From Candidatus Microgenomates bacterium (lineage in GTDB: Bacteria > Patescibacteriota > Microgenomatia > UBA1400 > PJMF01): a stretch of DNA of 61,006 nucleotides. Shown one piece after another: positions 50,179 through 57,617 of this stretch; the stretch's first letter is position 1, and each line of letters starts with the position of its first letter. The stretch is taken from positions 1-61,006 of the forward strand of contig WFRK01000016.1 in the NCBI GenBank assembly GCA_015486535.1. Direction: 5' to 3'. The notes beneath the pieces are model-generated. The model saw only the letters and a list, made by a program, of their open reading frames with translations, did no database searches and was not told the origin of the DNA. A program made the translations under genes and the position numbers.

Positions 50179-52209
50179 TTACTCATACCGCAATGCATCT
50201 AAAGCTGAAATCTTAGTGGCCCGCTTAGCCGGGTAAATGCCAGTCGCAATTCCTACACCAAGTGATAAAACTGCAATTAAAATTACAAAATAGAAAGGTA
50301 CGTGAGAAACATCAATCAGACCAGCACCCCTAGAAAGAGCAAATAAAGTTAAAATTAAACTAAGTAGTTTACCAGCCACTACTCCCAAGACGATACCCAA
50401 TATTCCACCGTAAAAACCCATCACAATTGATTCTGTTAAAAATAGCTCTTTAATCTCTTGAGACCTCATACCCATCACTTTCATTAAACCGACTTCACGG
50501 GTACGCTCTAAGAGTGAAACTGTGAGAGTATTGAACATGCCAAGAGCTGCTACCGACAAAGCCACCATTCCTAACAAAGCAAAAAATACGCGTGCCGTAG
50601 AGAATAAGGAATTAATTTGAGATACCGTATCAGCCACCGATTGCGTGATGAAACCCATGGCTTCTATTTGGCGTCTCACTTTTGCCAATCCTTTTTGAGT
50701 TTTAGTGCTGATTTTGGCCTGAGAGTAATTAGTAACTCCCAATGATCTCAAATCAATAAAAGGAACATAAAAAAGTGGATTTTTACCGTCTGGTATAACA
50801 CCGACAATGGTGTAATTGGTGGGTACAGATTCAATTTTATTATCTTGATTTTCTAGCAATTCTCCCACTATAACAAACGAGGCTGAAAAAGTTTGACCGA
50901 TAGCTTTGTTTTTATCTAGTCCTAATACATTCAACATGGCCTGATTGACTACCGCCTCTTTAATTGCATCTTGAGCTAATTTAACCTGTTTGACTTTAAC
51001 TTGAGTTATAGCACTTGACTCTGATGCTACTTCCACCCAATCAGTATTTGTGCGATTTGCTTCATCACTACTACCTAAAACTTGTCCAAATTCTAAATTG
51101 GCATGGCTGGTAATAGCGAGGTTAACTTCGGCCACGTAACCATTTGCCTGAACTTGTGTTCCATCCTGATCTCGATCAACCAAATATTTACCATCTTCAC
51201 AATCCCCTTGAGTTTTAGTGTCACAACTTTGTCGTTGCCAAATTAATACCTTCGTTTTTAACCACTTACCCAAAGTATTACCTTGCTTATCGGAGCCAGC
51301 GCTACCAGCATCATTATCAGCCAAATATTTGCCACCCCAAACTTCATCCGCTTGAGAATAACCTTCAACCCGCTTGGTATAACCAATAATCTTGGCGTCA
51401 ATTGAAGGACCACTTCTGACTCTGATCCAGGCCCGAGGATTAATGAGATACTCTACTCGACTAATTCTTTCACCAACACTACCCATTTCTCTCTCTGTAG
51501 CAATTCCTGCCACTTGCCCCGGCGAATCTTTAATTGAGCTAATTAATTGATTATTGTCAAAAATCTTGCCCTCAATGGGTTTGATGGCTGACTGATGTAA
51601 GTAATTAGCCGTTACACCATAAACTGCCACATCAGTAACTGAATTTTGGTAGCTAATTTTTCCTACTGCAGTAATTACTGGTAAAGCTGAACTTACCTGC
51701 GGTAAATTGGTGAAATCAGCGAGTACTTTATCATTAAGACGTAATTTACTACCAGTTTGAGATGAAACATTAGCTTGACGCATTTCTTCTAAACGGGTCA
51801 CCCGTGACACCACTAAATCCTGTAAACCGTAACCAATAGATACTAAAAATACGATTGCTCCAATACCAACCGCCATACCACCAATAGTAATTGCAGTTCG
51901 AGTTTTTTTGGATTCGAGGTTAGATATCGACAACTCTATTAAGTCTATTCTAGAAATAGAATTTCCTCGACCAGCATCAAGCATTTTAATAGCTCTCAGG
52001 TAAATTGGTTGCCAATAGTGCATTAATCTGTTTGACTCAGTATTAGTTGAACCTTTAAACAATTTAGTCACCCACCTTTCAACAAAGCCAACAATTTGGG
52101 TGATTAAATATAAAATTAAAAGACAAGTAAAAGTAACCATCCTCCAGCTACTCGTTAACACCTCATTAAGTTTTGGTTTAAATTTTAATCGCAAGGTAGC
52201 TTTATTCAT
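50179..52209 (-). CDS. MacB/FtsX-type ABC transporter permease with a large extracytoplasmic domain containing SH3b-like inserts
   Basis: One TM segment, about 430 aa of ectodomain, then three TM segments forming the FtsX domain (ALLGMVALSVAALGMFNT, KVMGMRSQEI). WIRVRSGPSIDAKIIGY is SH3b-like. Confidence 0.85.
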   Translation of the reverse strand: MNKATLRLKFKPKLNEVLTSSWRMVTFTCLLILYLITQIVGFVERWVTKLFKGSTNTESNRLMHYWQPIYLRAIKMLDAGRGNSISRIDLIELSISNLESKKTRTAITIGGMAVGIGAIVFLVSIGYGLQDLVVSRVTRLEEMRQANVSSQTGSKLRLNDKVLADFTNLPQVSSALPVITAVGKISYQNSVTDVAVYGVTANYLHQSAIKPIEGKIFDNNQLISSIKDSPGQVAGIATEREMGSVGERISRVEYLINPRAWIRVRSGPSIDAKIIGYTKRVEGYSQADEVWGGKYLADNDAGSAGSDKQGNTLGKWLKTKVLIWQRQSCDTKTQGDCEDGKYLVDRDQDGTQVQANGYVAEVNLAITSHANLEFGQVLGSSDEANRTNTDWVEVASESSAITQVKVKQVKLAQDAIKEAVVNQAMLNVLGLDKNKAIGQTFSASFVIVGELLENQDNKIESVPTNYTIVGVIPDGKNPLFYVPFIDLRSLGVTNYSQAKISTKTQKGLAKVRRQIEAMGFITQSVADTVSQINSLFSTARVFFALLGMVALSVAALGMFNTLTVSLLERTREVGLMKVMGMRSQEIKELFLTESIVMGFYGGILGIVLGVVAGKLLSLILTLFALSRGAGLIDVSHVPFYFVILIAVLSLGVGIATGIYPAKRATKISALDALRYE

Positions 52210-52252
52210 TTTATTGTTTTACCAATTAGTATTTTAATTAACTAAACTGCAT

Positions 52253-56418: not shown

Positions 56419-57617
56419 GTAGAGAGTGTAAATGCCCCTGCGTAGGAAGTGCTACCCCAACCCCCGCCACGAAGGAACACCCGATTGGAGGAAGCACCAT
56501 TATAAGTGTAAATGCGACCAACGCCCTGATTGGCATTATAGCCACTGTCCAAGGGACGAATAATATCGTAAGACAAATCACCATAATCAGTAATGGCCGT
56601 ATGTTCAATCCAACGCCAACCAGCCGCACCACCATCTGAAGGAAGATTATTCGTTAAAGTATCATCACTGTCTCGCATCACATGCTCCCAAACGTTACCG
56701 GCCAAATCCCAAACAACACTGCCGTTAGAAAGACTCAAAGTACGTACCTGATTACCCACCGATCCCGATTGGCCACTGGCTGTATTGGTTGGACAACCTG
56801 ATGGATTTTCCGTTCCTGGATCACCGTCAGTATAAGCACAACGATAATCACCTGTGTCGGTAGTTGAAGCCGGTCTGGCTTTTGCGGGCGAGTTATCATT
56901 ATGACCAGCAAAAAGATAACCCAAACCAACATTTCCACCACTCCAATTTGTTGCTTGACTTTCAACATTGCGAGCAATTGTCATCCATTCAGGGTTCGTA
57001 ATTAAATGAGCAGTACTACCATTAAGAGTAATTGCAGCACACCTAACCTTAGCATTATCATGACTAATATTAGCGATTGGATAACCGGAAGCAACTGAAG
57101 TCACCTGTCGATTATTAGTTGAAATACAAGGGGTAGTGCTGTCTGAGTAAGTATGATAACCACTGTCAGGACTAGTCAAACCTGTCGTTAAGTCGGAGGT
57201 AGCGACGCATTTTGCCTCGTACTTCATCACTAAAAAGTTGCTGGTGGAATAAGCGGTGTTGCCAGGCACTTCCACCCAACCAGCGGGAGGGATGGCGGCC
57301 ACATTCCATGAACTATTATCGTCGTTGAAAGCAGAATTAGCTAATTTATTAACTCCACTGATTGGATGAGCTCCATTAGTGTCTACCGCAACAAAATTGG
57401 CATCATAGGTATAGTCGCTGGCGGTTGAAACATTAAAAGTCCAAGTCTTACTGCTATCGTTAAGTGCAAATACTTTGGGCAAAATGATTTTGGTAACGGT
57501 TAAGTACGAACCGACTGCAATTCCAGTAAAAACTAAAAACGTAGTCAACAAATTGAACTGAATGCGTGAAAAATGCCAGTGAGGAGCAAAAAAGTAGTCT
57601 TTGAATCGAGATAACAT
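56355..57617 (-). CDS. N-terminal part of the DGR variable protein: signal anchor plus an FGE-sulfatase/C-type-lectin-fold domain carrying the VR
   Basis: TM segment LLTTFLVFTGIAVGSYL. FLVMKYEAK, DLAGNVWEHV and FLRGGGW are FGE-sulfatase/CLec-type motifs common in DGR targets. The last 22 aa are out-of-frame VR sequence. Confidence 0.85.
   Translation of the reverse strand: MLSRFKDYFFAPHWHFSRIQFNLLTTFLVFTGIAVGSYLTVTKIILPKVFALNDSSKTWTFNVSTASDYTYDANFVAVDTNGAHPISGVNKLANSAFNDDNSSWNVAAIPPAGWVEVPGNTAYSTSNFLVMKYEAKCVATSDLTTGLTSPDSGYHTYSDSTTPCISTNNRQVTSVASGYPIANISHDNAKVRCAAITLNGSTAHLITNPEWMTIARNVESQATNWSGGNVGLGYLFAGHNDNSPAKARPASTTDTGDYRCAYTDGDPGTENPSGCPTNTASGQSGSVGNQVRTLSLSNGSVVWDLAGNVWEHVMRDSDDTLTNNLPSDGGAAGWRWIEHTAITDYGDLSYDIIRPLDSGYNANQGVGRIYTYNGASSNRVFLRGGGWGSTSYAGAFTLSTCFGLVPIRVSMLGFAVPVIP
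56363..56483 (-). repeat. DGR variable repeat (VR)
   Basis: 121 nt. Identical to the TR except for 17 substitutions, all at TR adenines, and a 2-nt insertion at 56422-56423. Confidence 0.9.

Follow-up and report, generated by a model that had tools for sequence, protein, structure and literature searches.

A recurrent three-gene module of Patescibacteria, made up of a giant FN3-stalk protein and a pair of ABC ATPase and type VII permease, that in some members carries a diversity-generating retroelement target

Does the target protein of a diversity-generating retroelement (DGR) on contig WFRK01000016.1 of a Candidatus Microgenomates bacterium belong together with the transporter of ATP-binding cassette (ABC) type encoded directly behind it, or do the two only share a neighborhood? 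The window analyzed here is the whole stretch of 61,006 nucleotides (nt), and the span under study (50179-60952) lies entirely on the minus strand. A preliminary description of this DNA had proposed that a hypervariable surface protein and a MacB/FtsX-type ABC pair form one functional unit for the export, anchoring or release of an adhesin. In the window we found one copy of a module of three genes that is widespread in Patescibacteria and consists of a secreted or anchored giant protein with a stalk of FN3 domains, an ABC ATPase and a type VII ABC permease. The features of the module are the following, with the giant encoded here in two open reading frames (ORFs).

56355-57617, minus strand: giant part A, 420 residues, with the leader, a membrane helix and the putative lectin-like head that bears the DGR variable region (VR)
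52999-56418, minus strand: giant part B, 1139 residues, with the end of the VR, a module resembling a carbohydrate-binding module (CBM), the FN3 stalk and the tail
53002-53082, minus strand: conserved C-terminal tail of the giant, PKATANALNLVIGGLQQAFGFLGELKQ-COOH, an amphipathic helix
52253-53002, minus strand: ABC ATPase, 249 residues (PF00005, ABC_tran, 116 bits)
50179-52209, minus strand: type VII ABC permease, 676 residues (PF02687, FtsX, 59 bits; PF12704, MacB_PCD, 55 bits)

The conservation of synteny, which the preliminary description had itself named as the test of its proposal, was examined in both directions, from the permease and from the last 433 residues of the giant. Full-length orthologues of the long permease were found in about 14 genomes among 60 relatives, and at all 13 of these permease loci for which upstream DNA was available a giant FN3 gene stands beside the ATPase-permease pair. 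The last 433 residues of the giant were matched in 14 of 61 genomes, always adjoining that permease or at a contig edge, and a genome of the same genus has neither the long permease nor the giant. In a scan of named genomes, stalk and tail were matched over their full length at 41 loci, which belong to Microgenomatia (Roizman-, Shapiro- and Daviesbacteria) and to Saccharimonadia. The ABC pair is adjacent in 37 of the 39 named-genome loci with tail-bearing giants, and both exceptions are from one metagenome-assembled genome in which the giant lies at a contig start. At about 30 of the named-genome loci the ATPase starts between -11 and +10 nt from the stop codon of the giant, with several overlaps of 1, 4, 8 or 11 nt. 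All seven metagenome loci that carry a DGR-type head and extend far enough downstream have the ABC pair behind the tail. In a sample of 401 genomes covering the phylum, stalk and tail were present in 87 (82 of 320 genera), and in 18 of 20 loci taken from this sample the genes for the ATPase and permease come straight after the giant, even where stalk identity falls to about 30%. By each of these counts, the linkage between transporter and target is conserved in related genomes.

When the neighboring genes were clustered, the families of the giant, the ATPase and the permease were the only conserved ones, antisense shadow ORFs inside them aside, and the next were avd and the DGR reverse transcriptase (RT), at five loci. 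The trio is kept together where the ATPase and permease genes are fused, where the order is ATPase, permease and giant, where the orientation is divergent, where a small extra ORF is present, and where two giants share one ABC pair; in one locus (L042) tandem duplicate modules each have an ABC pair of their own. The module can be defined by a giant whose helix Φ-x-x-Φ-Φ-x-x-L-x-x-x-F-G-(F/W/L) ends no more than about 10 residues from the C-terminus, together with an adjacent ABC ATPase/FtsX permease pair. This description fits more than 70 loci, as well as the window, where the tail NALNLVIGGLQQAFGFLGELKQ is joined to the ATPase gene by a 4-nt overlap. Two loci (L003:10966-13600 and L006:11111-13633) have genes for a CHASE4/PAS histidine kinase and for a receiver-only response regulator placed between those of the giant and the ABC pair, a hint that use of the module may be regulated in some genomes.

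On the side of the giant, the constant element is the C-terminal end. The giants range from about 1000 to more than 3000 residues and carry differing heads; their N-terminal halves are mutually unrelated, and they begin with classical signal peptides in some members and with a His/Trp-rich leader and membrane helix in others. After the last FN3 domain, a conserved tail ends every family member examined, reading …PKATxNALDLVIxNLxxAFGFLGxLK-COOH in Microgenomatia, …IIGRASDSVLTIVLNxLxKVFGF-COOH in Saccharimonadia and …SLxRSFGWL… in more distant lineages. With a hydrophobic moment of 0.3-0.5 and a mean hydrophobicity of 0.3-0.5, the tail helix is amphipathic and too polar for a transmembrane segment; it is the candidate handle for the ABC system. 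A relative at locus L101 (1378-3255, 625 residues) has the same leader and lectin head as the giant in the window, no FN3 stalk or tail, and no ABC pair downstream. Because this head-only protein is encoded without the pair, and because the tail is constant across unrelated N-terminal halves, the transporter is tied to the stalk and tail and not to the head. The L101 gene is surrounded by phage-like genes, including those for HNH-type proteins, and the head may be exchanged between phages and cells.

Within the window, part A begins with a conserved His/Trp/Phe-rich leader (YFFAPHWHFSRIQFN) and a membrane helix that ends in VFA|LND (57470-57617). The leader motif YFF(S/A)P(R/H)WH(L/F)SR(F/I)Q(L/F)N, the Gly-rich membrane helix and VFALND are strongly conserved among the window, L036, L004 and even L002, a relative that has no lectin head, and are absent from members with ordinary signal peptides. 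Part A itself gave no Pfam match, and the head of L004, which is 38% identical to it, matches PF03781 (FGE-sulfatase) with 4.6e-5, just above the cut-off. Part B holds about 8-9 FN3-type domains and the CBM-like module (Pfam fn3, Pur_ac_phosph_N and PhoD_N) and has no export signal of its own. Its homologues are 45-80% identical over the last 433 residues, and intact fused homologues of 1503-1539 residues exist (L004, L036, L017, L096, L097, L103, L104, L106 and L107), so the one-chain architecture is real for the family. In L004, L036 and L103-L107, the internal VR is conserved and in frame.

The assignment of the two downstream genes to a MacB/FtsX-type ABC pair was confirmed with Pfam, as the permease matches PF02687 (59 bits against a cut-off of 25.5, residues 546-668) and PF12704 (55.3 bits against a cut-off of 27), and the ATPase matches PF00005. 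An AlphaFold2 model of the permease calculated from a 67-sequence alignment reached a pLDDT of 79.5 (a single-sequence model, with a pLDDT of 35.7, was unusable) and places the first transmembrane (TM) helix at residues 102-137, a beta-rich ectodomain at 138-524 and a helix at 525-578, with three C-terminal helices in all. A Foldseek search with this model returned 61 Protein Data Bank (PDB) matches at E ≤ 0.001, the best being MacB, LolE/LolC, Spr0695 and YtrF with E-values of 1e-15 to 1e-18, and the best 50 of the 61 (headed by 5gko, 9rld, 5xu1, 5nik and 9o9x) contain nothing but type VII ABC permeases or ectodomains of these. When the permease profile was compared with PDB sequences, YtrF was the best match (3e-32). 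Against NCBIfam equivalog cut-offs, the permease scored 64 versus 966 bits for MacB, 58.5 versus 362 bits for LolCE and 28-38 versus 225-255 bits for the FtsX models; being so far below, it is a superfamily member on a separate branch and not an orthologue of MacB, LolCE or FtsX. The ATPase is of the LolD/FtsE/MacB nucleotide-binding domain kind; it has LolD, FtsE and DevA as its best NCBIfam matches, all under the equivalog cut-offs, and its motifs are intact (Walker A GPSGCGKST, signature LSSGQ, Walker B ILITDEPT and H-loop VTHD). An extra helix at the permease N-terminus (residues 1-45, 52075-52209), basic and then hydrophobic, precedes the canonical first TM helix; its residues W20, F27 and L30 are invariant in the 67 homologues, and as a fifth membrane helix it would invert the expected topology of the permease. 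For an SH3b-like insert in the ectodomain, a Pfam search of the permease gave no SH3 match at E ≤ 0.01.

Two further type VII ABC systems are encoded in the same genome, and each stands beside a recognizable extracytoplasmic partner. The first (contig C52, 1048-4111) comprises an HlyD-like adaptor, an ATPase and a 410-residue permease, and the second (contig C43, 3447-6484) comprises FtsE-FtsX followed by a protein with a coiled coil and a C39-like peptidase, an arrangement like that of PcsB/CwlO. As both adjoin their partners, the giant would by analogy be the partner of the third system.

Several observations weigh against such a partnership. Operon-linked genes share their history anyway, so synteny alone is no proof that the proteins are physical partners. 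Four loci have a tailed stalk and no ABC pair in the DNA examined, namely L037 and L038, where the giant is at a contig start, and L140 and L142, which are the most divergent. In the window the ABC genes are intact although the giant is frameshifted, which is compatible with an independent function of the pair, and public annotations name the homologous permeases as the permease of an ABC-type antimicrobial peptide transport system, a generic name. The intact ABC genes and the annotation, along with the Shine-Dalgarno-like AGGAG that the ATPase gene has of its own, would suit an ordinary MacB-like efflux or peptide-resistance pump that shares a transcript with the giant and has no physical or mechanistic link to it. 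We regard such a pump as quite improbable. In different classes of the phylum the pair and the tailed stalk are found together in a nearly one-to-one relation, and this association survives fusion, re-ordering and duplication of the genes; the neighborhood has no further conserved gene, the system with the HlyD-like adaptor already gives the genome a separate MacB-like pump, and the head-only relative at L101 has no ABC pair.

A second alternative is that the ABC transporter secretes the giant across the membrane, with the C-terminal helix serving as a secretion signal. In the type I secretion of giant adhesins (LapA-LapBCE, RTX), a repetitive giant with a C-terminal element is likewise encoded beside a dedicated ABC system, and in the module a conserved, signal-like element at the extreme C-terminus is directly followed by the ABC genes. 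Type I systems, however, combine a 6-TM exporter with a membrane-fusion protein and an outer-membrane protein in diderms, and their substrates have no N-terminal signal, whereas the module permease has the type VII fold of four TM helices and an ectodomain, the giants carry N-terminal signal peptides or signal-anchor leaders of the Sec type, and the conserved neighbors include neither a membrane-fusion nor an outer-membrane component. Type VII ABC proteins also have no known transmembrane substrate channel and are not known to conduct substrates across the bilayer (PMC5985334). Secretion by the pair is therefore very unlikely, and export across the membrane by this class, one of the roles given in the preliminary description, is improbable in view of the Sec-type leaders and the lack of a known channel. 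The Pam pilus of Saccharibacteria (PMC13278184) was also considered as an identity for the module and was rejected, as it is a chaperone-usher-like system without ABC genes.

The genes upstream of the giant in the window, and the elements of the DGR, are as follows.

59984-60952, minus strand: GHKL-type ATPase
59691-59987, minus strand: STAS-like DUF4325 protein
59178-59519, minus strand: DGR accessory protein bAvd, 113 residues (PF22296, 86 bits)
59022-59140, minus strand: DGR template region (TR), 119 nt, between avd and RT, with the in-frame reading …RGGNWNNTSNTGAFTLNLNWDSTNTNNNVGFRCSSD
57726-58850, minus strand: DGR reverse transcriptase (RT), 374 residues (PF00078, 83 bits)
56363-56483, minus strand: DGR variable region (VR), 121 nt

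The minus strand carries every gene between 60952 and 50179, and the run ends at the permease because the DivIC-like gene beyond it is convergent. The spacing given in the preliminary description holds, with the largest gaps being those between the STAS-like gene and avd and between TR and RT (171 nt each); the gap from RT to the target is 108 nt. The stop codon of the giant and the start codon of the ATPase do share an ATGA at 52999-53002 (TGA at 53001-52999 and ATG at 53002-53000, read on the minus strand), where GAA TTA AAA CAA TGA is overlapped by ATG AAC, and the permease begins 43 nt after the ATPase (ATPase end at 52253, permease start at 52209). The AGGAG of the ATPase lies 10 nt upstream of its ATG and is encoded by tail codons (…F-L-G-E-L…, 53003-53020), so that the tail sequence and the ATPase ribosome-binding site overlap. 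A scan for promoter and terminator consensus sequences found no terminator-like site at either junction and gave no excess over shuffled sequence (30 versus 34 expected and 11 versus 7.8), which makes it uninformative either way. An operon reaching as one functional unit from the GHKL ATPase down, as had been suggested, is unsupported, since the pair of GHKL ATPase and STAS-like protein (59691-60952) is not conserved with the module elsewhere; none of the other DGR and giant-module loci searched by BLAST has a homologue of the pair, and it was rejected as a part of the module.

The target had been described as a single protein of 1538 residues, which does not hold for this DNA. The interval 57617-52999 measures 4619 nt, which is not a multiple of three, and is made up of two ORFs in different frames. 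What breaks the frame is a 2-nt insertion that the VR shows, compared with the TR, at about 56422-56426 (VR ACACTCTCTACTTG, TR ACACTCAACTTG). The VR frame is lost after …GAFTLS, and the shift there terminates the first ORF 22 codons on, while the canonical VR end …VGFRCSSDP is in the frame of the 1139-residue ORF. The giant is thus not made as one chain in this genome, and its coupling to the ATPase can involve only the signal-less 1139-residue fragment. Owing to the frameshift, the products predicted from the sequence would be a 420-residue anchored head without its last lectin-fold strands and, at most, also a signal-less stalk fragment. Translational coupling to the ATPase would then require that this fragment be translated, although the ATPase has an AGGAG of its own 10 nt upstream.

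The permease sequence was found exactly on three more assemblies (from ENA, Logan and NCBI GCA_027006925.1; L121, L122 and L123), which differ from the window by 4-10 single-nucleotide polymorphisms (SNPs) across 7.5-11 kb; the four assemblies together represent two SNP haplotypes. All three give gene calls of 420 and 1100 residues and have a VR that is letter-identical to that of the window, insertion included, over the compared region 56330-56520. Since the VR and the split are the same in assemblies that differ by SNPs, the frameshift is no assembly accident of the window. It also follows from the identity across haplotypes that the VR has apparently not been rewritten by the DGR since the haplotypes diverged, though avd, TR and RT look intact. 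Five SNPs lie inside the giant, three of them synonymous and two conservative, a number too small to judge selection.

The split copy is either in an off state or decaying. With the TR intact, retrohoming from it would restore the frame, so the split state could be reversible; a fixed decay of this copy is equally possible. In one form of the latter, the copy would be a remnant in which the DGR is inactive, the target a pseudogene and the coupling to the ABC genes a functionless leftover; in its favor are a frameshift present in four assemblies of two SNP haplotypes and a VR that stayed unchanged between them. This form appears improbable because avd, RT, TR and both fragments of the giant are otherwise stop-free, the SNPs in the giant are synonymous or conservative, and a new round of retrohoming would repair the frame; moreover, it bears on this copy only and not on the module. 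A further point against the remnant is an independent DGR-headed giant on a marine metagenome contig (L109, 9200-9600), which is also split at the VR, by a 2-nt deletion (TR GGAATAATACG, VR GG--TGTTACG); in L017 a run of N lies inside the VR. Indels and assembly trouble in internal VRs thus recur, and the second, independent indel suggests that VR indels arise repeatedly, and perhaps reversibly, as a side effect of DGR activity; they could stem from retrohoming and switch the protein off.

How, then, does the DGR relate to the module? The window has RT, Avd and a TR/VR pair in which every substitution within the shared stretch is at a TR adenine, a pattern seen likewise in the intact relatives L004 and L036. 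As in the canonical DGR targets Mtd of Bordetella phage BPP-1 and TvpA of Treponema, an avd-TR-RT cassette is accompanied by adenine-specific TR/VR differences, and the VR lies in a domain, here putatively lectin-like, that ends in …GFRC. Unlike in Mtd and TvpA, where the VR is C-terminal, the VR is here internal, about 380 residues from the N-terminus and with about 1140 codons after it, instead of at the C-terminal end of an intact target ORF; the target belongs to a family of ABC-linked tailed giants, and in the window its VR is frameshifted. The RT shares 48-62% identity with its counterparts at the other DGR-headed loci. In all lectin-headed giants (the window, L004, L017, L036 and seven metagenome loci with enough downstream DNA) the ABC pair follows the tail, and the avd-TR-RT cassette is upstream in every such locus with enough upstream DNA. 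A tree of the last 433 residues places the DGR-headed giants within one well-supported clade, mixed with head-less relatives, and requires at least three gains or losses of the DGR-headed stalks.

A DGR target coupled to a MacB-type transporter is accordingly a real and recurrent arrangement, and it is a sub-case of a broader, mostly DGR-less module. DGR-headed giants are a minority and most modules have no DGR, so that of the unit of target and transporter first proposed, the conserved unit is upheld by synteny while its defining partner is the FN3 stalk and tail and not DGR targets as such. DGR cassettes that adjoin the module and are aimed at other small genes were seen at L007:9390-13840 (L007/L035), L041:5140-5670 and L045:2900-6830, the last with several VR copies. 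This repeated adjacency without targeting of the module looks non-random. The DGR as the ABC-linked element was tried and rejected on the grounds that most modules are DGR-free, that the DGRs of L007/L035, L041 and L045 target other small genes, and that at least three gains or losses are needed.

The three genes very likely form a functional unit. What this unit does is best approached from the type VII class, whose members pass ATP-driven motion to partners outside the cytoplasm or draw hydrophobic anchors out of the outer leaflet (PMC5985334, PMC7668044; for YbbAP-TesA, PMC12646458). The module shares with FtsEX and its partners EnvC, PcsB, CwlO and RipC an ATPase, a 4-TM permease of the FtsX fold with an ectodomain, an adjoining partner gene and a proposed action that is mechanical and not one of transport. 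It differs from FtsEX in a permease far below the FtsX equivalog cut-offs (28-38 versus 225-255 bits), in an ectodomain of about 390 residues instead of about 100, and in a partner that is an FN3 stalk of 1000-3000 residues with a single terminal helix and not a coiled-coil hydrolase activator. With MacB, LolCDE, YtrEF and Spr0694-0695, which have a Porter-Sabre ectodomain, it shares the best structure and sequence matches and the MacB_PCD domain. The ectodomain of the module permease, however, has about 170 extra beta-rich residues relative to this group, and the module has no MacA/HlyD-type adaptor. LolCDE is a precedent for pulling the hydrophobic anchor of a protein out of the outer leaflet; the partner here is a giant with a C-terminal helix and not an N-terminal lipid anchor.

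On these grounds, the preferred reading is that the pair is a type VII ABC system which has the giant as its extracytoplasmic partner, engaged through the tail, and taken as a whole we consider this probable. The giant would cross the membrane by means of its own N-terminal Sec-type leader, after which the permease may engage its C-terminal amphipathic helix, either by docking on the large ectodomain, as EnvC, PcsB and RipC dock on FtsX, or by pulling it from the outer leaflet, in the way LolCDE does with lipoprotein anchors. Hydrolysis of ATP in the cytoplasm could then serve to keep the stalk protein in place, mount it, move it or let it go, and not to pump a solute. We infer both the physical contact between tail and permease and the effect of the ATPase cycle on the giant, and the specific use of the tail as the handle is put forward tentatively, with the chances somewhat short of even. 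In the clade with a DGR head near the N-terminus, the DGR would diversify the end that binds, on a stalk worked by the ABC system; should the leader be cleaved at VFA|LND, the lectin head would be the distal end of the stalk. At its boldest, the proposal would make the module an ATP-powered appendage of ultra-small episymbionts, in which an ABC machine grips the tail and mounts, retracts or releases the stalk, the DGR reprograms binding, and VR indels serve as an off/on switch that can be reversed from the intact TR; this larger picture is speculative, and we think it unlikely to be correct in full.

Among the papers covered by a literature search for DGRs, the Candidate Phyla Radiation (CPR) or giant proteins together with FtsX/MacB, none was on the module or on a DGR target paired with FtsX/MacB, and a large survey of DGR targets (PMC8144416) mentions neither ABC nor FtsX. 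For annotation, the finding means that these permeases are not to be labeled antimicrobial-peptide exporters by default. The module would add giant adhesin-like stalks to the partners of type VII ABC systems, which include hydrolase activators, lipoprotein carriers, efflux adaptors and lipid hydrolases. Its DGR-headed members, with the VR inside the ORF, would place hypervariation at the head of a protein that an ABC system handles at the opposite end. Patescibacteria account for a large part of bacterial diversity, and the majority of them are believed to live on other cells, to which they attach. By tying the largest surface proteins of Patescibacteria to a mechanotransmitting ABC machine, the three-gene unit would offer a testable candidate for a device of attachment or release.

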